Below are positions 6,601-46,955 of a stretch of DNA of 59,932 nucleotides, in pieces. The first letter of the stretch is position 1, and the number at the start of each line of letters is the position of its first letter. The translations under genes were made by a program, and so were the position numbers. This stretch comes from a virus (lineage: Duplodnaviria > Caudoviricetes), in the IMG/VR virus record IMGVR_UViG_3300042560_001663, positions 1 through 59,932 of that record; one strand, 5' to 3'. The notes under the pieces are model-generated. The model was not told where the DNA came from. It ran no database searches and saw nothing but the letters and a program-made list of their open reading frames with translations.

Positions 6601-9600
6601 CAGACGTTAAATCTAAAATTTTTGGTATGAATTTTAAAGCATCTTCTGCACTTTTTGCCAATTTAATTGTATTTTCATTAACCTTCACAATATAAACTGT
6701 TGATGGTAATTTATTAGTAATTCCTATTCCAACACCAAAATCAGTTGTACCTATACCTATAGATTGAGTTGTTCCTGCACCTGGATTTGTATAAGTAATT
6801 TTTTCTCCAGTAACAAAAAAGTGATTGGGAATAGTGATAGTATCCAAAGAAGTGTTTACAATAAGCGGACTACTTCCGTCAAAATCTCTTTTGAAAATTT
6901 GATTTCCTTTGTGGTTCAAAGGGAAATCACGTTTAATATCACTCTCGGTTCCAAAATAGGTTCCATAATTTGTTTCTATACTTCCATTATTAAGTGATAA
7001 TATATCTTTTTCATCATCTTGATGTCTTAATGCGTTAGAAAATCCAACAATTCTAGTATCAATATTTGGTAATGGAGTGAAAGTAAGTTCTGTTACTAAA
7101 CCATTTTTTCTGAATCCAAAAGTTCCCAATCCAGAATTGGTTTCAATGTTTCCAAATTCAAGAATATACGTTTCACCTGGGTTTTCATCAGTTTGATCGT
7201 CCAAAAGAACAATTTCAGATAATTGATACCTATTATTTGTAGTATCAGCAACTTGAATTAAACAATATGAACAATCGTAATCTTTTAGATATTCAATTAT
7301 AGGAGTTTCAGTTGGGGATATAGATGATAATATTGAAGTTGAAATACCTTGAAGTTCGGCGTGTTTCATATCATATGCATCAATTCCGAAAAAAGTTCCT
7401 CCCAATAATGTTTGGAAAGTATTAATCGTTACTGCAATTCCTGTATTTGGATAAAAATCAATTTTTAATTCTGATCCCGAAATATAGGGATGATAAGTTC
7501 CCAATCCAGAACTAGAATATGGGTTTAATGAATCATTTGTAATTTGGCCATATTGCAATAATTCAACGTTAATTCCATCGTGTACGATATTAAGTTCATC
7601 AAATTCATATTGTCCATTAGAACCTGCAATTTCAACTAAAACTTTTGCAGAATTATATGTTGTTCCAATTCCAACAATGCTTGTTGATCCAGAAGATACA
7701 AATTCACTACTAGTTTTTATTATTACAAAATCTCCAAAACTAGATGTACCAATTCCTAGCATTGAATCTTTTAGATTGTATGATAATGTAGTAATATTAT
7801 AATTATTAATCGAATATTTTACTGGATTAAAGGTTAGAACTCCTTCAGTTCCTTCAATAAAAAAGTCGAAAGACCCCAAATCATATGAAGATTCTAATCT
7901 TGCATATTGATTAAGATACCCAACTCCTTTAGAATGTAGCAAAGAAACTAACATTAATTGTCTTTGTCCAGTAAATCTTCTATCACTTACAAAAGTAACA
8001 TATTTTTGTGCTCTTGCATTAAAAAGTGAAAATCTATGAACTTCAGAAAATCTTGTAAATCTTGGATTGCTGCTAAATTGTGAACTTATATCATCAATTG
8101 ATAAAACTCTATTACCAATAGATTCAAAATAATCAGTTAGAATTCTACTGGAAAATGTGATTTCATCAGAAAAATATCTTTCGGAAATTGAAAGAGAATT
8201 TTCTTTTACTAAATCAAAATCTGTTACACAATTCAAATCCGCAGATCCAACTATATCTACAACAACATCTACATAAGTTTTTTCTGTAGAAATTCCTATG
8301 GACATAGAATTAGAATTTTTTGTTTCTAATTGATATTCCGAAAACTTTTTAAATCCAGTTGTATGATTTAAAGTACTAACCGCATCTTTCCAAGAATCAT
8401 AACTTACTGAAGATTTAATTGAATATGAGAAATTTTGATAGAAATCACTATCCTGAATTCTTTCGGAGTTGAGATTTAAGAATCCAGCACTCGTTTGCCA
8501 TCCATTATTAACTAATGATGAAGAGTCTAAATTAAAAAATGAATCTGTTGTATCCACTAAACTTGCTATTCCTTGAGTTTTTGAAGTTAATCCTTCAACA
8601 ATCTCTCCTGGAATAAAATTTTCTTTTGATACTGCTCTTAATTGATTTGTTATTGGGTTCCACCCATCAACATAACCAAAAGTAGAATTAGATTTAATAT
8701 TTTCCCCAATAAAGTAATTATTTTTTTGCAGTTCGACATTAAAAGTTGGAAAATATTTTTCAGGAATTATTCTTCCCGACGAATTAACAGGATCATAATT
8801 TCCTGGAACTTGTGATTCGGACAATAAACCATTTAAACTATAAGATACAGATCCTATTCCACCTCTATTTTCAGTCACAGAAGTGAGAGTGAACAATTTA
8901 TAATTATAATTTTCGGAATTATAGCCAATACCAGTCGAACCTACTCCCACACTAACATTTTCGATCATAACTTTGTCATTCACTTTAAATGGGAATGAAT
9001 CTGATGTACTAAATCCAACAGATAAAGTAACAGTTACTTCTTTGTTTAGTGAATTATACTTTATAGATCCTATACCAACACCATTTGAATTTTGTATGGG
9101 TAAAATAATTGGAGAGACATTACTTAAACTATATGCATTTTTGCGTATTTCTACATCATTGCTTCCTAAAGTATATTTTAGATCAATTTCTGGAATAAGT
9201 TCGTTTGTTTTTCCATCAAATACTAAAAGTTTTGGTGATGTATTATAACCTCTACCAAAAGAATTAATTCCTACGGATTTAAGTGATGATAAAGGTTCTA
9301 TCTTTACAATTTGATTTAATGAAATACTTGGTCTTAGAGTAAAATCACTTGGAAAATCAAATCCAATATCATTAATTTTTGTTTTTTTAATATTTCCGAT
9401 CGAATAACTCGATGCCTCTAACAGAGCATTTTTCCCGAATTGAGAAACAATCGTAGAAATTCCAGGCAAAGCATAATAATTTCTGCCCTTATTAACTATT
9501 TCTACTTCAAATATTGGACCAAGAGCATTTATTGAATCTGTGTTATATTCAATATTTGAAGAGGAATCGGCATAAAAAATATTTTCTGGTGTTTGTGGTA

Positions 9601-24258: not shown

Positions 24259-25516
24259 CATTCAGAAAGTAACAGATTTGACATCATCAGCATACTTTTG
24301 AGCATACCGATTTGCAATGAGTGATGCACTACTGAAACCAAGATACTTTTGATTCTGATACATTGCCCAGATCAATTTCTTGGTTTGAAGATCAGAACAA
24401 GCAACGAAAGTCATCATTCAACCTCCACCATAAACATAGGACACAACACCTTCAGGATGATTGACATTTTCAATCACCTTAATCGGTGCTTCATTAAACT
24501 CTTTTTGCCTTTCTTTGTTATGATCTTTAGCATAGATGCTATCATCATTTCTTCCAAACTTTTTCATAAAGATTTGTTCGCAACGAGGCAAAGATTCAGC
24601 AGCAATCACACACATTCCAGAAGTGTAATCGTAAAGAACATCGGAGATGATGTAGAGATTCATTGGATTCAATCCTGTGCAGAAGAGAAGGTTTCAATGA
24701 ACAAATCCCAGGCAGGATTGTCATCAACAAAAGAATGAATGTTGCACTGATCGCACACCCATTCGTATGCAGAATCACAATCTGCATCAGTATTCAGAAC
24801 AAACGATTGCAGACCTGAAATTGCACTCAGGAAAGCATCATCAGTGACGAGTGATAGACGAAACTTGTTTGTGTGCTTGTCTTGAATCATTGTCATTTGA
24901 GTTGGATTCCTTTGACTCTCTTAATATACAGGAGATTGGGGGCAGTGGGTCGTTGTGTGTGCCACCTGTTCAACTGGCACATCATTACATTTTAGATGTG
25001 AAATCAGACATCATTGTTGTAAACGTCTTGTTCAATTTGAGAGAGAACTTGTTGATTGCACTTTTCTGGAATCAACTCATCATTCTCATCACACAATTCA
25101 CTCAACCAATCATCAAATTGCATCTGATTGAGTGATTGTAGATTGTCCAGTTGTTGTTCAATAGAACGAAGAAGTTGTGCTTGAGTCATTGTTTTGTATC
25201 AATTTGTAGTTTGATAATTGTTGTCAATGCGATCAGAAAAAGTAAACCAGAAATGAATACTCCTACACCATAAACTCCACAATTTGCATCATGATTCAAT
25301 CCACATGTTGAACTATTCCATGAATCGGAAACTTGAAGTGATTGTTTCATCATCAATCACCAAATACTTGTGCATTTTCTTCTGGTGTGACATTGGTAAC
25401 TTCACTTTCCAGAATCTCAATGTTGAACAGATCAAACAACTGATAGAGTGCTTGTTCCAATATCACTGGATTGACTTCTGCTTTATCAATCGTGAATGAA
25501 ATTGTTGAAGTGTTCA

Positions 25517-28252: not shown

Positions 28253-28981
28253 TCACATCATGGCAAGCATTAGTGGTTTGTTTATACGATCTTTAGTAAT
28301 TTGATAGTATTTCTCATCACTTTCAATGCCAATAAAGTTTCTGTTTGTATTCACGCAAGCAACACCAGTTGTTCCCGAACCCATCGTATTATCAAGCACA
28401 GTATCACCTTCATTGGTATAAGTTTTGATTAAATACTCCATCAAATCTACTGGTTTTTGTGTAGGGTGCAATCCCTTTTCTTGTTTGAATCGCAACACTG
28501 TTTTAGGATATCTTGATCCATCTGGATTATCCCGATGTTTGCTCTTTGCATTACCATAAACCTCACCAATCTTACTGGTATCTGATGAGAACCCACTGTA
28601 AGGAGTTGAATACCACATTTGTGGGTTATATATGGGTTTCTTGCGATAAAAAACTAAAATGTTTTCGTGTGATTTGAGAGGCATCACTTTTGCGTTCATA
28701 GGATTGGTTCCTTGTGGTTTTTCCCAGATCCATTCATAACGAAAGTTCTCAAGATTAGATGCTGCAAGTATAGTTGTGAATGGTTGTGCTGCAGTGAACA
28801 CCATTGCACCATCTTCCTTGCAGATTCTGTTATATTGCCCCCACAATTTGTCTAGAGGAATAATAGAATCCCATTTACAGGCAGTTGTTCCGTATGGCAA
28901 ATCTACCAACACCATATCAACAGAATTATCTGCAAGTGTTGGTAGAATATCTAAACAATCACCTAGATGAAGATTTACCAT
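28253..28981 (-). CDS. DNA amino-methyltransferase (N6-A/N4-C, beta class)
   Basis: Motif IV DLPY near the N-terminus, IWEK, HE.ILVF, HPTQKP, motif I VLDNTMGSGTTG near the C-terminus. Confidence 0.92.
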   Translation of the reverse strand: MVNLHLGDCLDILPTLADNSVDMVLVDLPYGTTACKWDSIIPLDKLWGQYNRICKEDGAMVFTAAQPFTTILAASNLENFRYEWIWEKPQGTNPMNAKVMPLKSHENILVFYRKKPIYNPQMWYSTPYSGFSSDTSKIGEVYGNAKSKHRDNPDGSRYPKTVLRFKQEKGLHPTQKPVDLMEYLIKTYTNEGDTVLDNTMGSGTTGVACVNTNRNFIGIESDEKYYQITKDRINKPLMLAMM

Positions 28982-29520
28982 TGATCCAGAGACTTTACGA
29001 ACGACATACTCTTTAATTTATCGATCTTTGTGCAGATATAATCATCATTCCCAATAGATTTGCCACCTTGTTGAGGAGCAAACACACATTCATCACTTTT
29101 AAGATGTTGAATAAAATCATCTTTGGTGAACCAAAAGAAACGGCAGTCCTCTTCAGTTGGATTGATTCCAAAAAACACAAGACGTTCCCAATCTTTATCT
29201 TTTGAGACGTGATTGATGATAAACTGATCTTCTTTCACACCACCTTTTTTGTCCCGAGTTGCAAGAGAAAACTTGATCTCTGTCATTATACCATCAATCA
29301 ACCTATCGTGTCCAGCAGTGGAAGTTTTTGCTCTTTTAACTTCACTACACCTTGCCTCAAAGTATTTGGACACAAAACGTTCACCAAACTCACCTTTTTG
29401 CTTGGGAGACATAAAAACGTAACTTTGAAAGGGTGTTCCAATCCAGGGATCTTGCACATTTTTATTGATATAATCTTGAAGAGATCCATCAATAAAAATA
29501 GAATCAAACATTTTTACCAA
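28975..29520 (-). CDS. Putative PD-(D/E)xK restriction endonuclease
   Basis: QKGEFGERFV...GHDRLIDGIMTEIKFS catalytic pattern; overlaps the start of the methyltransferase. Confidence 0.65.
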   Translation of the reverse strand: MVKMFDSIFIDGSLQDYINKNVQDPWIGTPFQSYVFMSPKQKGEFGERFVSKYFEARCSEVKRAKTSTAGHDRLIDGIMTEIKFSLATRDKKGGVKEDQFIINHVSKDKDWERLVFFGINPTEEDCRFFWFTKDDFIQHLKSDECVFAPQQGGKSIGNDDYICTKIDKLKSMSFVKSLDQW

Positions 29521-30499: not shown

Positions 30500-31139
30500 T
30501 TGATGTCACCTTCAGCAATCAACGACATAATTTCACGAGCAGTGGCAGCAAAGTTAATGTGGTCTTCAAGTCCTTCATTAGAATAAACATTGAAGACATC
30601 AGATTCTCTGTAAGTGTCAACAATCAATTTGCAGGCATCATAGAGTTCTGCAATGTGATGCTGACGTGTTGGAAAGGAAATCATTGATGTTGTGTGGTTT
30701 GACTCAACAAAGATAGTATAAGGGCATTGTGGGGGCACACAGGTGCCTCTGTGGACACTTAGAGAAGTGTCACCTTTCAAGACATTTTTGCAAGACTTAC
30801 CAAAAGTCTAATCAACAGAAGAACACCAAACACTTGCAGATAAGTAACAGAAAGACCAATCATCAGTGCAAGAATAACATAGAGGACACCTGAAAGAATT
30901 GCCTCTGCAATAATTGCACCAATTACTTTACCGACTGTATGAAGTGCTTCTTTTTTTTCGGTGGAGAGTGTCATTTGTTGTTAAAATGTTGAAGAATAAT
31001 AATTTGCAATGCTCCCAGAGAATATGCTAGGAGAACCAAGATTCCACAAATCATTGAATGTTGTTTGTCTCAGCAGAACTACAATAGACGATTTTGAGTG
31101 CTGTGCCAGGATGTTGTGCCAGTTATTCAGGTGTCACAT

Positions 31140-31526
31140 TCAAGTGTTTGGATGTCTAATATGTGTGTCTGTAGTTGAGAAATCTTTGTTCTTTCCTTTA
31201 TTTGCCTGGAATCCGTGCGATTTATAGAACTTTGCTAATTTTTCTTTCTTTCCTTTTTCTGGTGCTTGATTTAATGTAATTCTTTTGCCTTGTTTATCAG
31301 CATACTTTGATAATCCTTTCATAATTCTTCCACCAACACCTTGTCCACGTTTTTCTGGTGGAATCCAGATATTGTGTAGACGAATGTTGCCAGATTTGTC
31401 ACTGTGAGAAGCATCAACATTTACACCACGATGTTTTTTACCATATGCTCTTGATATTTTGTTCAAAACCTCTTGTGGTGGTTTTGCTGCTTTTGCTTCT
31501 TGAAGAAATTGTGAGAAAGTTTTCAT
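31140..31526 (-). CDS. GNAT-family acetyltransferase with T4 capsid-targeting-like N-terminus
   Basis: IWIPPEKRGQGVGGRIM (acetyl-CoA-binding motif A), LAKFYKSHGF (motif B); begins MKTFSQFLQEA. Confidence 0.8.
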   Translation of the reverse strand: MKTFSQFLQEAKAAKPPQEVLNKISRAYGKKHRGVNVDASHSDKSGNIRLHNIWIPPEKRGQGVGGRIMKGLSKYADKQGKRITLNQAPEKGKKEKLAKFYKSHGFQANKGKNKDFSTTDTHIRHPNT

Positions 31527-31531
31527 TTTTA

Positions 31532-32227
31532 TCACTCTGCTTCATATTCTTCTCTAACAGGTGCATTGCTACGATCCACAAAAGATTGTCTTGTGACTTT
31601 TCTTGATGCAGATTTAGTTGCTGGTTTCTTTTTACCTTGAGTTGCATCCTCTATATCTTTCTCAAGTTGATTCGCAAATCTTGATAGAAAACCAGTTCTT
31701 GCTAACTTAACATCACTTGGATTTCTTGCTGCTTCATCAACTTCATATTCTTCTCTTGCAACATCAGATTGATACCTTTTTGCACTTGCCATTTGCTTTA
31801 ATCGTGCAAGTTGCTGCATCTTTTTGATTTTTCTTTTCTCTTCTGGTGTTGGTGGTGCTTGTGTTTCAGTTTCTTCTTTTGTTAAATGTGGTGCTGCTTT
31901 GTATCCTTTGTGTCCTGCCTGATAGTTTTGCCATGCTTTTGTGTTTGCTTTTCTATCTGCTGCAGTTACAGTCATTGAAGTATCTTCTGGTGCTTTCTTT
32001 TCACCACCATACACAACCTTCTCACAAATACCTACAAACTCCTCAAATGTTCTTGCTCTTGGATTATAGTAAGGAGTGACATCAGAACGATACTGAGTTC
32101 CACCTACATTCTTACCAAGATGCTTTTCTTGTCTTCTCTTTTTCTCTAGTTCGTATTGCTGTTTTGCGGTTTTTGGTTTAGGAATAGGTTGTCCAGTGAT
32201 TCCTACTTCTGTTTTGTCCTTTGCCAT
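31532..32227 (-). CDS. Charged, likely internal-head/late protein (231 aa)
   Basis: K/E/Q-rich; internal RTFEEFV..CE and repeated xEE sites; perfect TATAAATA upstream. Confidence 0.6.
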   Translation of the reverse strand: MAKDKTEVGITGQPIPKPKTAKQQYELEKKRRQEKHLGKNVGGTQYRSDVTPYYNPRARTFEEFVGICEKVVYGGEKKAPEDTSMTVTAADRKANTKAWQNYQAGHKGYKAAPHLTKEETETQAPPTPEEKRKIKKMQQLARLKQMASAKRYQSDVAREEYEVDEAARNPSDVKLARTGFLSRFANQLEKDIEDATQGKKKPATKSASRKVTRQSFVDRSNAPVREEYEAE

Positions 32228-32230
32228 TGC

Positions 32231-32255
32231 TACAAATACTTTTTAGGTATTTATA
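32231..32255 (-). promoter_or_regulatory. Late promoter TATAAATA embedded in a leader hairpin
   Basis: tataaatac-ctaaaaa-gtatttgta ending 3 nt before ATG. Confidence 0.75.
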
Positions 32256-32259
32256 GTAT

Positions 32260-32814
32260 TCAATCAATCGGAAGTTTTGCTTGTGAGTTACTCTTTGGGA
32301 TGATAAGTTCTTCCATAATGATTTGCTTTGGTAGAAAGTTCCAACAATAGTAACTAGAACTGAACGTAATCTTGTCGTTTGGTCTACCATCAGGACTGTG
32401 AAACTTCATCCGTTTGTCAAACATCAACAGTTGAAGATCCTTGTCCTTGAATAACTGTTTCGGAGCACTATCATTCAACCAAGTGTTAGTCATAATGAGT
32501 GCAAATGGTTTGCCAAATGATAATGCCCTCTCAAAGAACTTACGTTTGTTTGTGAATGGTGGATTGGATACAATTACATCCCATTTGAGTGGTTCAAAAT
32601 CAAAGAAATCTTGACCATAACGGATGTGGGAGTAGACTACATCATTCTGCTCACCAATCTGCTTGACAAACTCACTATTTGGAGTATCAAATGGGCACCA
32701 GACGATTACATCTTTGGGAATGTATTTCAGAATGGGAGTAACACCGTATTTTGGAGTATAACATTCGTCGTTGTTACCCTCCGAATACATCAGTTTGCCA
32801 CTGTCAAGAGTCAT
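32260..32814 (-). CDS. Compact amino-methyltransferase (NPPF motif), probably DNA N6-adenine
   Basis: DECYTP, VWCPFD (motif I variant), GQDFF, DVIVSNPPF (motif IV). Confidence 0.75.
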   Translation of the reverse strand: MTLDSGKLMYSEGNNDECYTPKYGVTPILKYIPKDVIVWCPFDTPNSEFVKQIGEQNDVVYSHIRYGQDFFDFEPLKWDVIVSNPPFTNKRKFFERALSFGKPFALIMTNTWLNDSAPKQLFKDKDLQLLMFDKRMKFHSPDGRPNDKITFSSSYYCWNFLPKQIIMEELIIPKSNSQAKLPID

Positions 32815-33317
32815 ACAATTTGAGTTCCGTATTGATAGATTTCTTTGCGGGTCAGATTACCAGAGAGACGGGGATCTTTGTGCTTACCGTGAATCTTACG
32901 TTCCCAATCTTTCTTAAGTTTGGGAAGCAGAATCATCAGTACATCATCACCAGTCAGTTTCCACACTTCAACGACTTTGCCACCATCATATCGGGCAATA
33001 TAGTGATTGGAATACTTACCAAGTTTCTCCTCAATCAGATAACGTTCTTGCTCTTCCCAGGTATTTTGGACACTGATACCATTATAAGTCCCATTGATAG
33101 ATTTAGCAATGGTAGATTTATACTCACATTCACCATCTTGATCCACAGCATCAGCACCCGAATAAGTTTCTGCTACTTGATGTCCAAGAATACTAGCAAG
33201 ATGTATCTCACGGGAACGAGCATAACTGAAAGGATCTCCCCAACCTTGTTCTTCACAAAGTTGATACATTTCTTCAAACAGTTGTTGAAATCTTTGTTCG
33301 GGGGTCATATGAGTCAC
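32811..33317 (-). CDS. PvuII-family restriction endonuclease
   Basis: Collinear similarity to R.PvuII as recalled: GADAVDQDGECEYKS vs GNDAVDNAGQEYELKS; DWERKIHGKHKD vs KWERKWYSDGHKD; YGTQIV vs HGTKIY; similar length; ATGA overlap with the methyltransferase. Confidence 0.72.
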   Translation of the reverse strand: MTHMTPEQRFQQLFEEMYQLCEEQGWGDPFSYARSREIHLASILGHQVAETYSGADAVDQDGECEYKSTIAKSINGTYNGISVQNTWEEQERYLIEEKLGKYSNHYIARYDGGKVVEVWKLTGDDVLMILLPKLKKDWERKIHGKHKDPRLSGNLTRKEIYQYGTQIV

Positions 33318-34219
33318 CAGTGCTTTGCAAGTGTAAAGTTCATTCTACTAAACTCATCACGATTCACGATTTTGTAACTTCCAAACTGATTGTGCATTAC
33401 AAATCCTTCGTGCTCTGAATCTTTACCATCAATTTTGCAAGTGATGTTATCATCAGATTCAATGTAGAAGAACATATCCATCTTGATAGATTCAATCAAC
33501 TTCCACAATCGCAGCAGGTTGATGTCAACATCATAATTTTCTGCGATTTCGTGTTCGTCAACCTCTTTACCCTCACGAATGTAAGAATTGATGATTTTTT
33601 TGAGTTCTTTTGCTTGTTTGTCACTCACAAAGGTGCAAAGTGTGCTCATTTGACGTGCAAACCCACAAAACTCTTCAATATCATCACGATAAGGACAAAT
33701 TGTTGCTGTTGGTTGAACAAACAAACAGTTTTTTGTGCTGTTCAGTTTCTTCAACAAAGGAGCAGCAGTCATCTCACGAATATCATCAGCACCACTGTAA
33801 ATTGTGTGAGGTGCAATGATAATGTCCTGACGAATTGGTGAAGAGAACTTATAGGTAATTGTGTTAGGAGTGAATGTATCTGCTCCACTCCCGAAACCAA
33901 TCCAATCACCCTGAATCACTGCTTTAGTGCGGGGCAGAAAGTCAAGACAATAAATGAGAATCTGTGCTACCTTTGGTTGATGTCCAAAGTGAGTAAAGAT
34001 GTCATCTTGATTGTAGCAAAGACGAATCTTTTGCTTATTAAATGCTGCTTTAGTGCAGACAAAGAACTTTCCATTCTGAGGATTTGTACCCCAAACAATA
34101 GCAGGAGCACCATCAATTTTCACACTGACATTAGAGTCAGCAGTAAACCAATTCAGAACACTCAAATCTCCTGTCAAGATAGAATCTTCAGGATGTTCCA
34201 AGTGGAGGTTTTGAGTCAT
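33314..34219 (-). CDS. Ligase-fold (KxDG nucleotidyltransferase-like; DUF6267-like) protein
   Basis: HLEHPED, SVKIDGAP (motif I), IQGD, EGFV (motif IV), KIVNRDEFS. Confidence 0.6.
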   Translation of the reverse strand: MTQNLHLEHPEDSILTGDLSVLNWFTADSNVSVKIDGAPAIVWGTNPQNGKFFVCTKAAFNKQKIRLCYNQDDIFTHFGHQPKVAQILIYCLDFLPRTKAVIQGDWIGFGSGADTFTPNTITYKFSSPIRQDIIIAPHTIYSGADDIREMTAAPLLKKLNSTKNCLFVQPTATICPYRDDIEEFCGFARQMSTLCTFVSDKQAKELKKIINSYIREGKEVDEHEIAENYDVDINLLRLWKLIESIKMDMFFYIESDDNITCKIDGKDSEHEGFVMHNQFGSYKIVNRDEFSRMNFTLAKHW

Positions 34220-34897
34220 TGTTTGAGTGTCAACAAAGTCATCATAAAGTAAAAAAAGGAACCTTGTGGGTTCCTCTGTGACAGTTTATCAGGTGTCTTC
34301 TTCTTCTTTGAGTTTGTCCATTGCAGTCTTAGATATTTTACAAACTCGGTTATCTTTGTAAAGTTGAGTTACACGTTCCCGACGAAGTTCAAGAAGTCGG
34401 TTGTAAGTTACTTGCTGTCCTTCAGAAAGATTAAAGTCATTGACTCTCCATTCTTTTTGAAGTTCTTGAAGTTGAATCAGGATTTCAGAGGGTTTCATTG
34501 AGAGTTTCTTGTGTGGTTTCTTGAGTCACTTTAGGTGTCACCCGAATGTTGTAAGGTGAATTGAAGAATCTACGAAATGCAGTAACAATAATCAGGAAAG
34601 TTGATGCAACACCAATCAATCCCAGAAAAGTGACAGCATCACCATTAAAATTAAGAGTTTCAGGAGACATAATCAAAAATCGTATTTGGAATTGAGAAAA
34701 GTGTTGAAAGTTTTGTCATCATTTGTATTTTCTTCAAAGAGTTCGTCTTGATAAGATTCTTTGAAGTCAAAGTCATTCAGTTCTTCAACTTGAATGTCAT
34801 CAAACCAATCCATAGAGGTTCCTCAAATGAACAAAAGTAATATACAGAAGATTGTGGTGTTTTTGTGGTGTTGTGTGCCAGTTATTCAGGTGTCCAC

Positions 34898-35962: not shown

Positions 35963-36388
35963 CAGCAATCGTAATCTTTGACATATGAGAGCAGTTTAAT
36001 CTGTTCTTGTAGTTGTAGTATTTCGTATTGCTGTTCTATAATTTTTTGTTGTAATTGCGAGATTCTATCTTGATATTGAGTTTTAAGATCATCAATCATA
36101 TTGTTGGCATGATCTACGTTTTGTGTCACGTCGTAAATGCCTCAACTACACTGGATTCTACATCTTCAGCAAGAGGATAAGTTCTTGCATTGACTACTTT
36201 GTCACGAAGATTTACATAAAACTGTTCGTTGAAACCATCATCATATTCTTTAATCAAATCAAAACATTCATCATCATCCTCTGCAATCACTGCCCAAAGT
36301 CCACCATATTCACTTCTAGGAAAGGGGCAAAAATGATCAACCAGATAAAGAAACTTTTGTGCCATTTGTTTTTGTAAGTTACTCCTTA

Positions 36389-41481: not shown

Positions 41482-41958
41482 TTAGCATCCAAACAACAAT
41501 GCACCAATACCTGCTCCAAGTGCTTGCCAAGAATAGTTATTGCTGTAAGTATTACTCCAACTACTATTGGAGTAGTTTCGTCCATAACTTGAATTCCAAC
41601 TTCCACTGGACGTTCTACTATTTCCACCAGAAATTGCACCAGCAATACCAGCACCCAAAAGTGCTCCTGCAGTAGGATTGCAATTCCTACGACGATAATA
41701 ATTTACTGGTGGTTGAGTAACATATCCACCACCATTTCCACTATAAACTTTAGATGAATAAACCTCTCCAGTTTGGCAATTTACAGTCAGTTCAGTTGTT
41801 TGCACTCCACCCTGAATATAGTTTCCGTAATTATTATAATACCCAGGAACATAATTTTCCTGATATTGCCGACAAACTTGATAGGTATTAGTTTGTTGAG
41901 CAAATACTGGTGTGGGTGATGCAATCAAACCAGCAAGCAGAAATGCTTTGAGTTTCAT
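41482..41958 (-). CDS. Exported glycine-zipper protein (start revised to MKLKAF)
   Basis: Signal peptide MKLKAFLLAGLIASPTPVFA; GALLGAGIAGAISG and LGAGIGALLFG zippers; four Cys. Confidence 0.7.
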   Translation of the reverse strand: MKLKAFLLAGLIASPTPVFAQQTNTYQVCRQYQENYVPGYYNNYGNYIQGGVQTTELTVNCQTGEVYSSKVYSGNGGGYVTQPPVNYYRRRNCNPTAGALLGAGIAGAISGGNSRTSSGSWNSSYGRNYSNSSWSNTYSNNYSWQALGAGIGALLFGC

Positions 41959-42510
41959 TTGGAGTTTAATTCTAAAGTCATCATAAACAAAAAAGAGGAC
42001 TTGTAAAGTCCTCGTGTGCCAGTAATTCAACCGCCCTTTTCTTTCAAACTCCGTACAAGATACTCAGTAAATGCTTCCATCTTCTGTGGTGCAACTTGTG
42101 AAATGTTATAATCAATCGCATCTTTAAGTGCAGTCATTTCATTCCATTCTGTATCTGTAAGTTTTTCTGCGTGTTTGGATGAAAATGACATAGTTTTTTT
42201 GCTCCCAGAAATATCTTGAAATCCTAACACTATTTAATCAAGTTTGGAGGTTGCTTAAGATTGTCTTTAGAGTGTTGTTACAAAACTTAATCATTAAAGA
42301 ATGAACCAAAACTACCACGACTGTCTGGTTTTCTGCTCTCCAACATATCCATCAGTTCTTCAATTTTCTTGCATTGTTCTAAATCAAGTAGAAGTTTGGA
42401 AAGTTGTTGAACTACCAGTGGTTTTTCATTTGTTGCAGCACTTTTAATTGCAGCACGAAGGTGTGATTCTGCTTCTAAAAGATGATCCAGTGTTTGTTTT
42501 GATAGTGCCA

Positions 42511-46259: not shown

Positions 46260-46955
46260 TTATGTTACTCTAACTCTACCCATCTCCCAACCATCACCGG
46301 GACATTCTACACTTCTTTTATTAATTTGCCCATCATTCCACCATTTTGTTCCTCTTACTTTTTGAGATAATATTTTAATTGCTTCTTTTTGTTTTTCACT
46401 TTGAGGTTTTCCTTTTTTTGACTGACTTATTTTTATTTTAGTTTCTTCACTAACAATTTTATTCAAGTTCCATTTTCTTATTTTTTCTTTATGCTCTTCT
46501 GAAAGTTTTCTTCCAATATTCCACTTATTTCCTATTTTTGATTTTTTTAGTTTTTCTATAGTTTGTTTGGAATGTTTTTTAACTCTATGTTTTTCAAGTA
46601 TTTGTTTATGTTTTTCAGAAAGAGTTTTACCTTTATGAATTTTACTCATCTTTTGTTTAGTTTCATCAGTCATTCTCAATCCAGTAGAACCTTCACCACC
46701 ATCAGTTTTATTGCGAAGAATACCAGTTCCCAAATCAATTCTTCCAAGCACATCAATCATATAGATTTCGTGCTTGAATGCGTCTTCTTCCGTTAGATTT
46801 TGTTTAAGAAAAATTATCCTTGATTTATCAGTTGGTTTTCCAACTTCACCCTTAACTTTCTTATATGCTCTATTTTCTTTACCTTTGCCTATGTAATAGG
46901 GAGTTCCATCCTCACGCAAATACGCATAAGTATAAAATCTATATGGATTTACCAT
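46260..46955 (-). mobile_element. Free-standing GIY-YIG-type homing endonuclease with NUMOD3 repeats
   Basis: FYTYAYLREDGTPYYIGKG...R...E...LRN.TDGGEG; repeated (M/L/H)SEETKxKIS...KG motifs; C-terminal KWWNDG...PGDGW.MGR. Confidence 0.8.

Follow-up and report, generated by a model that had tools for sequence, protein, structure and literature searches.

The 59,932-nucleotide stretch of viral DNA analyzed here, positions 1 to 59,932 of IMG/VR virus record IMGVR_UViG_3300042560_001663 and referred to below as the window, carries on its minus strand two overlapping genes, one for a predicted restriction endonuclease of the PvuII family and one for a very small putative adenine methyltransferase that we denote, together with its relatives, MT2. 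An earlier note on this DNA had described them as a restriction-modification (R-M)-like pair, in which a nuclease of new specificity is joined to a swapped methyltransferase partner and carried by a lytic phage. The two genes, the overlap between them, and the extent of the mobile unit that contains them are as follows:

32260..32814, minus strand: minimal N6-adenine methyltransferase of 184 amino acids (aa), predicted from its open reading frame (ORF), a match to phrog_799, and an SNPPF motif
32811..33317, minus strand: gene for a predicted PvuII-family PD-(D/E)xK endonuclease, 168 aa from a GTG at 33317 or 165 aa from an ATG at 33308
32811..32814, minus strand: ATGA overlap between the nuclease stop codon TGA and the methylase start codon ATG
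32255..33313, unstranded: extent of the mobile cassette, 1059 bases, from contigs of reads in DNA run X16

Most homologues of the nuclease start as the 165-aa form, and the ATG at 33308 is likely to be the true start; it is also favored because the cassette boundary in a deletion variant from run X16, described below, fits it. The protein matches phrog_35715 at 1.4e-82 and belongs to a family of unnamed proteins, with 1160 clusters when grouped at 90% identity and, for E values up to 1e-3, 220 representatives when grouped at 50%. On its own, the sequence scores 21.2 bits against the Pfam family PF09225 (E value 3e-4), short of the 25 required (residues 8–143 on profile positions 4–130 of 155), which counts against the assignment. 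A phmmer search of the PDB with this single sequence found no PvuII, NCBIfam and PADLOC gave no match for it, and a precomputed PF09225 match is present in two of the 120 homologues listed. However, a profile of 59 family sequences matches native PvuII chains at E values of 1.7e-7 to 2.6e-7 (profile positions 10–166 on PvuII residues 14–157) and single-chain PvuII at 1.8e-15. An AlphaFold model built on the same alignment has a mean predicted local distance difference test (pLDDT) score of 96.6, and in a Foldseek search of the PDB with this model ranks 1–11 were all PvuII (E values of 4e-7 to 2e-5, probability 1.00, template modeling (TM) scores of 0.57–0.73, with 0.65–0.73 for the best match, and 19–23% identity). 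Profile and predicted fold together argue for a distant but real member of the PvuII family. The end-to-end similarity to R.PvuII proposed in the earlier note therefore stands for the family profile and for the structural comparison that the note had foreseen, but not for the single sequence, which remains sub-threshold. Two peptide patterns, run against the genomes of 185,579 prokaryote species, gave 61 pattern matches, none of them a relative, a result limited to those patterns and no proof of absence.

The catalytic residues of PvuII are retained. D56, E65, and K67 of the nuclease align with the PvuII D...E-x-K motif (GNDAVD...E-L-K), and each of them, as well as E37, is at least 90% conserved over the 59 diverse sequences. 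D56, E65, and K67 are moreover invariant across the nucleases compared from loci that lack a methylase (orphans), that are paired with MT2, or that are paired with a beta-class methylase. The D...ExK motif is thus intact, as had been claimed, and its conservation suggests that the nuclease is catalytically active. In PvuII, the segment with His83–85 and the Asn-Asn loop read CAGCTG. The S-T-H-H-H segment aligns with S82-V83-Q84-N85-T86 of the nuclease, where the histidine triplet is absent, and the Asn-Asn loop aligns with KDPRL (147–151). The earlier note had STHHH replaced by TYNGIS; the histidines are indeed gone, but the exact equivalent of their segment is SVQNT, and TYNGIS (residues 77–82) lies just N-terminal of it, partly inside a four-residue insertion. 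Because the base-reading histidines are lost, the nuclease is expected to read a palindrome other than that of PvuII. TYNGISVQ (77–84) and KDPRL are candidate DNA-reading segments, and since neither TYNGISVQ nor KDPR[LI] varies among nucleases that are orphan, MT2-paired, or beta-paired, one specificity common to all of these groups is plausible.

Modeled as two copies, the nuclease forms a symmetric dimer through residues 6–45, with a score of 0.59 compared with 0.00 for the best control, at least 82% of contacts shared between runs, and a partner pLDDT of at least 86. In the calibration of this score, 20 of 30 solved same-chain pairs attained the mark, as did one of 23 single chains. Because the PvuII dimer has already been solved, the pass may reflect likeness to it and does not amount to independent proof.

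The partner gene encodes the 184-aa NPPF methyltransferase that the earlier note had recognized (ORF 32260..32814). Its motifs occur in the order YTP, WCPFD in the region of the cofactor pocket, and then SNPPF (S83-N84-P85-P86-F87), so that NPPF occupies residues 84–87. In an alignment of 46 MT2 sequences with identities down to 39%, YTP, WCPFD, and SNPP are invariant and position 87 is F or Y. MT2 matches phrog_799, annotated "DNA methyltransferase", at 3e-34. Its Pfam scores are all sub-threshold (Eco57I 20.3, under 25.3; EcoRI_methylase 18.6, under 26.4; MTS 14.4, under 23), NCBIfam and PADLOC gave only weak generic methylase matches, with nothing below an E value of 0.09 in NCBIfam, and no solved relative was found in the PDB by sequence, even with a methylase profile. 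The family is large, with 4949 clusters at 90% identity, and nearly all of its listed members have 170–200 aa. The structural model (pLDDT 83, with a core above 90) is a class I SAM-dependent methyltransferase domain, and its Foldseek neighbors are mostly N6-adenine enzymes, found at E values of 3e-6 to 1e-3: TrmM, M.BseCI, M.TaqI, ZCCHC4, METTL5, a type I M subunit, PacII, and CamA. TM scores to these neighbors are 0.4–0.54, with the DNA enzymes covered in their catalytic half only; normalized by target, the matches of M.TaqI and M.BseCI to MT2 have TM scores of 0.20–0.28. In the model and the Foldseek alignments the catalytic domain consumes all 184 residues, leaving no target-recognition domain. 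From motif order and modeled fold, MT2 is predicted to be the catalytic domain of a gamma-order N6-adenine methyltransferase without a recognition domain. M.PvuII is a beta-class N4-cytosine methylase of family PF01555, and the swapped partner of the earlier note is borne out in that MT2 appears to be a small gamma-order adenine enzyme and not a PF01555 protein.

The nuclease and MT2 are linked in arrangement and in inheritance. The ATGA overlap, which reads tcat on the plus strand and had been noted before, is predicted to couple translation of the two genes. Of the 50 MT2 genes in related loci whose match begins at residue 1, 47 start within the same ATGA. For a classification of related loci, each distinct nuclease DNA sequence was represented once; after removal of three partial hits, 72 full-length variants remained. 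MT2 abuts the nuclease in 60 of these: it overlaps in the ATGA style in 43, lies within 100 nt in 16, and is adjacent with a 1-nt negative gap in one, from phage P-TIM68. In four variants, including that of P-SSM2, MT2 lies 0.4–6.6 kb away, in three (loci L071, L092, and L133) only a PF01555-like beta-class methylase is nearby, and in five there is no methylase. PF01555-type methylases adjoin nuclease relatives in L071, L092, L133, and L280. Among cultured phages, the nuclease occurs only in P-SSM2, P-SSM5, and P-TIM68 (six records), where it is publicly annotated as "hypothetical protein". In P-TIM68 (L002; NC_028955.1, 46248–48278) it sits between a 304-aa PF01555 methylase upstream (3.3e-58) and MT2 downstream. 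Seen from the methylase, the nuclease is present in 62 of the best 80 MT2 loci and absent from 18.

The two genes also come and go together. In X16, a DNA run from a lake metagenome, one contig with a depth of 18.8 carries the cassette and another with a depth of 12.1 joins 32254 to 33314, lacking exactly these 1059 bases. In this deletion variant 31 other bases replace the cassette, and on the coding strand they read as a GC hairpin with a run of T after it. The cassette is a presence/absence polymorphism in a natural population, with both genes gained or lost as one unit. Abutment in 60 of 72 variants and joint gain and loss agree with the functional pair that the earlier note had proposed.

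Word counts point to a possible recognition site. With expected counts from a maximal-order Markov model, no palindromic 4-mer in the window is as depleted as CATG (17 observed vs 182 expected), and AGCT (10 vs 67) and GTAC (45 vs 144) are depleted as well. Palindromes have been purged far more heavily from the early-gene half of the window than from its structural half: positions 36109–59932 (23.8 kb) contain no CATG against 80 expected, 4 GTAC against 51, and 2 AGCT against 27. Three CATG at 25290–25319 showed nothing notable. In the five orphan loci, CATG is absent against 290 expected. These loci represent two lineages, L093/L094 and L095/L097/L100, on records of 17–99 kb. Four of the orphan records and that of the sister locus L096 (36–99 kb) contain neither MT2 nor PF01555, and the 17-kb record of L094 has no MT2 in a search for MT2 only. 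Among all 4-, 5-, and 6-mers whose pooled expectation reaches 12, only CATG (0 vs 155) and CCGG (0 vs 48) are missing from both orphan lineages.

CATG is retained in 57 of the 64 MT2-bearing loci and in all three loci with a beta-class methylase (observed over expected 22/27, 18/26, and 12/68). As a control, 78 loci around gp6 of related phages contain 1061 CATG against 2079 expected (0.51), and two of the 74 such loci with an expectation of at least 10 have none; those two have the gp6 closest to that of the window. Phage S-SM2, which has neither the nuclease nor MT2, keeps 111 of 160 expected CATG overall and 77 of 95 in its early region, so that early regions are not inherently poor in CATG. 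The earlier note had claimed a new specificity, and the k-mer counts, together with the loss of the histidine triplet, point toward one, with CATG as the word suggested by avoidance.

S-SM2 itself offers a parallel. Its gene SSM2_066 (L076; GU071095.1, 50147–50674) encodes an orphan endonuclease of the MjaI family (PF09568, 1e-46). MjaI cuts CTAG, and CTAG is absent from the 42 kb of S-SM2 examined, against 68 expected. This purge beside an orphan nuclease serves as a positive control for the word analysis and gives a further clean example, among cyanophages, of "restriction without modification". The S-SM2 "restriction enzyme" was also considered as a PvuII-like protein and rejected, being MjaI-like instead. 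Separately, other related contigs purge other words: GATC is absent against 18–42 expected in L069/L070, L270/L271, and L281/L283, and in L075 the counts are 0/16 for GATC and 1/22 for TGCA. The purging of words appears to be widespread among these phages and to vary between them.

We consider it likely that the cassette is a working nuclease–methylase pair of the R-M type. That it forms a compact mobile type II R-M cassette, probably directed at CATG and borne by a freshwater T4-like cyanophage, is the reading we prefer with moderate confidence. The assignment of CATG as the nuclease site is, taken alone, tentative, and we hold it with slightly more doubt than belief. In this model, a homodimeric PD-(D/E)xK endonuclease of the PvuII family would cut an unmethylated palindrome, most likely CATG, and the translationally coupled MT2 would mark the same word, the predicted product being C-m6A-TG (m6A, N6-methyladenine). 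Packaged phage DNA would arrive methylated from the previous cycle and nearly free of sites, with its 17 CATG in place of 182, and since incoming DNA would be protected in both ways, a nuclease-first gene order would be harmless to the phage. The nuclease would act early on unmethylated DNA of the host, of co-infecting rival phages, or of siblings that lack the cassette; which of these is its biological target can be suggested from the model only. Relatives of the nuclease without MT2 would protect themselves otherwise, by a beta-class methylase or by complete removal of CATG, and a beta-class partner would explain the apparent exceptions among nuclease loci without MT2. A bolder version, which we consider speculative and probably too strong, sees a restriction arms race among cyanophages around a PvuII-fold CATG cutter. 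The cassette would then be a selfish killer element that, in co-infected cells, destroys siblings without the cassette, rival phages, and host DNA, and it would be escaped by MT2 alone (immunity without the weapon), by a swap to a beta-class methylase, or by erasure of CATG from a genome of ~200 kb, and MT2 would be sequence-specific without a recognition domain and among the smallest enzymes of its kind known.

Several results weigh against CATG as the site or against the pair itself. Zero CATG is found in seven of the 64 MT2-bearing loci too, and a Fisher test of the contrast (5/8 vs 7/57, p = 0.004) overstates independence, the five orphans being two lineages. Each of eight divergent nuclease loci keeps 4–32 CATG and lacks a coding-strand methylase within 3 kb; in two cases MT2 occurs at another place on the record, and the other six loci, on records of at most 26 kb, could be counter-examples to CATG. 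Near one divergent nuclease, in L273, a 163-aa ORF (6966–7454, plus strand) has a weak match to the antirestriction protein ArdA (E value 5e-4; 21.1 bits, under the cut-off of 27). For MT2, the top Foldseek match is the tRNA enzyme TrmM, Atlas clusters are automatically named tRNA (adenine-N6)-methyltransferase, and the modeled fold appears equidistant from DNA and RNA m6A enzymes; gene linkage and word statistics favor DNA over RNA as its substrate. That MT2 has no recognition domain by which to read CATG is a further point against the model.

The same observations shape the alternatives. A true R-M pair could share a site other than CATG, such as CCGG, CAGCTG (whose adenine would become m6A), or a word that is longer or degenerate, and the purge of CATG would then stem from other restriction pressure, exerted by the host or by another phage enzyme. 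We think this unlikely, but several counts favor it: loci with MT2 only are as poor in CATG (211/1064, or 0.20) as nuclease carriers (0.17–0.21), and the orphan loci, like the whole group, are also depleted of AGCT (9/130), GGCC (6/65), and CCGG (0/78 pooled, in addition to its absence from both lineages in the test sets noted above). The CATG signal is nevertheless by far the strongest. CCGG is kept in 32 of 64 MT2-paired loci, including 12 copies in the window, and is an unlikely site because this word, having no adenine, would be beyond protection by an NPPF adenine methylase. CAGCTG, the site of PvuII, is absent from the window, from every orphan locus, and everywhere else examined, so that its counts do not speak against it and a retained PvuII specificity is opposed only by the loss of the histidines, the PvuII residues for the center of CAGCTG not being conserved. 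AGCT was rejected as the site, as orphan loci keep 2–5 AGCT each; the depletion of AGCT in the window can be assigned to neither the cassette nor a second R-M-like pair in the window, pair 1, described below.

Less probable still, the two genes might merely travel together, with MT2 as a stand-alone anti-restriction enzyme or a tRNA or rRNA m6A enzyme, and the PvuII-fold protein engaged in loose degradation of host DNA, recombination, or end processing beside the ligase-like DUF6267 protein encoded next to it. MT2 is about four times commoner than the nuclease (4949 vs 1160 clusters) and occurs without it in Thermus, Fusobacterium, Flavobacterium, and other phages; in the five long records among the 18 nuclease-less MT2 loci, the nuclease lies more than 10 kb away in two and is missing from three (66–106 kb). 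In P-SSM2 and P-SSM5, 6.5 kb separate the nuclease from MT2, DUF6267 remains in the neighborhood of the nuclease, and the TrmM match and the Atlas names would suit an RNA enzyme. This explanation is hard to reconcile with the ATGA coupling seen in 43 of the 72 variants of the nuclease and with joint gain and loss as one unit; nucleases without MT2, moreover, adjoin another DNA methylase or occupy a CATG-free genome, and among solved structures the nuclease is closest to restriction enzymes that are site-specific. In our view, a nuclease devoid of catalytic activity, or one that acts solely as the DNA-binding specificity subunit of MT2, is very improbable. The translational coupling and the missing recognition domain of MT2 would suit such a role, but the D/E/K residues and E37 are conserved as described, the MT2 family thrives without the nuclease, and orphan nucleases exist without any methylase. 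A mobile R-M cassette with CATG as its probable site accordingly remains the explanation we favor.

The carrier of the cassette fits the lytic phage named in the earlier note. Besides many small early-type genes, the window holds those of a T4-like cyanomyovirus, including gp25 and gp6 of the baseplate, a helicase, and a 4047-aa gp7-like ORF, with nearly all genes on the minus strand; the gp6 shares 76% identity with its counterpart in Synechococcus phage S-SM2. By this gene content the window is a 59.9-kb fragment of such a phage, and the IMG/VR record ends at the window ends. At least 94% of the sampled words of the window are present in each of at least 17 other lake or freshwater metagenome runs, and the window phage is a recurrent freshwater phage. 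A 4-kb megablast against phage records gave a single 72-base match and nothing else. Other features in the window are:

33314..34219, minus strand: DUF6267 protein, 301 aa, Pfam PF19782 at 1.5e-80, upstream neighbor of the nuclease gene
31140..31535, minus strand: small GNAT acetyltransferase (Pfam), two genes downstream of the cassette
46260..46955, minus strand: protein with a NUMOD3 motif, a DNA-binding motif of homing-endonuclease type (8e-12)
28975..29520, minus strand: pair-1 nuclease candidate, 181 aa, no Pfam match, D...E-x-K-like motif by eye
28253..28981, minus strand: pair-1 N6_N4 methylase, PF01555, 242 aa, 1.1e-31, DLPY motif, overlapping the 181-aa ORF

The DUF6267 stop codon overlaps the GTG of the nuclease, or sits 5 nt ahead of its ATG. 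DUF6267 lies near the nuclease in most related contigs, yet upstream, downstream, or elsewhere, and is context and no fixed part of the cassette. DUF6267 genes are also present in L272–L279. By eye, the DUF6267 protein of the window has K-I-D-G twice and, close to its C-terminus, E-G-F-V, reminiscent of nucleotidyl-transferase (ligase) motifs; a sequence search of the PDB gave no match. Downstream of the cassette, a 231-aa ORF without a family precedes the acetyltransferase gene. A promoter and terminator scan of 30900..34700 was close to chance: it gave 11 promoter-like sites where 9.7 would be expected, and for terminator-like sites the figures were 2 and 2.3. Directly upstream of the DUF6267 start (34255..34362, minus strand), a promoter-like site with 10 of 12 matches is followed by a hairpin with a 9-bp stem and a T run, which is not above chance. 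In two metatranscriptome runs, contigs covered only neighboring genes (31100–32229 and 33986–34400; 90–99% identity) and none lay on the cassette, which is uninformative on its expression.

In pair 1, the 181-aa ORF lies upstream of the PF01555 methylase, the same nuclease-then-methylase order as in the cassette, in agreement with the earlier note. An hhalign comparison of the 181-aa protein with the PvuII-like family showed no relation. As candidates for a second PvuII-like gene in the window, both this protein and the ORF at 41482..42030 were rejected as unrelated to the family. Pair 1 is also present in L123/L242, about 9 kb from the cassette.

Literature searches, mostly at the level of abstracts, found no paper describing the cassette or CATG avoidance in cyanophages and no report of virus-encoded R-M in T4-like cyanophages of lake or ocean picocyanobacteria. 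Virus-encoded R-M is well documented for chloroviruses, so that a virus-borne type II system is of a known kind; what is new is the PvuII-family branch with its unusual minimal methylase. T4-like cyanophages control picocyanobacteria in lakes and oceans. If the proposed model is correct, cyanophage infections would gain a concrete mechanism for the breakdown of host DNA or for exclusion between phages, and loss of CATG from whole cyanophage genomes would be self-protection and not evasion of host enzymes. The PvuII family would gain a branch with a different, probably 4-bp, specificity, which would inform how this fold changes its target, and the 184-aa MT2 would be among the smallest site-specific DNA methyltransferases.

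Among known systems, the closest in fold is R.PvuII of Proteus vulgaris (PF09225; PDB 1pvi, 2pvi, 1f0o, 1pvu, and 3ksk). The cassette nuclease resembles it in its end-to-end fold, in the placement of D...E-x-K, in size (165 vs 157 aa), in the predicted symmetric dimer formed through N-terminal helices, and in having its gene beside a methylase gene. It differs in its low identity (19–23%, under the Pfam cut-off), in V-Q-N-T in place of His83–85, and in KDPRL in place of the Asn-Asn loop. The systems differ as well: the cassette has a 184-aa methylase of predicted gamma order and adenine specificity where PvuII has the beta-class N4-cytosine enzyme M.PvuII, no C-protein gene was seen with the cassette, its site is probably CATG compared with CAG^CTG, and it is carried on a lytic phage. 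The next-best structural neighbors of the nuclease, the N-terminal domain of Eco15I and NhoI (PDB 8q5m and 8q5n; E values of 3e-4 to 7e-3), are far weaker, with TM scores of 0.40–0.49, and are methylation-dependent cutters, which would make no sense beside a methylase. On the methylase side, M.TaqI and M.BseCI (TM 0.49–0.54) and TrmM, the tRNA m6A37 enzyme (TM 0.38–0.42), share with MT2 the catalytic Rossmann domain with its (N/D)PP(Y/F) motif; all three have only 11–15% identity to MT2, and M.TaqI and M.BseCI have a large C-terminal recognition domain that MT2 lacks.

In function, the chlorovirus PBCV-1 encodes the CviAII system, in which R.CviAII (A252R) and M.CviAII (A251R) are early genes, the site is CATG, and the modification is m6A, according to the published account (PMC7248222). 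CviAII is likewise a type II R-M pair of a lytic virus's own, and, should CATG prove to be the site of the cassette, no known system would be closer to it in function; PBCV-1 is a eukaryotic algal virus. The nearest parallel within T4-like cyanophages is SSM2_066 of S-SM2, a type II restriction-enzyme homologue in the early region of a genome purged of one palindrome. It belongs to the unrelated family PF09568 and, unlike the nuclease of the window, has no methylase partner, but it follows the same logic as the methylase-less relatives of that nuclease.

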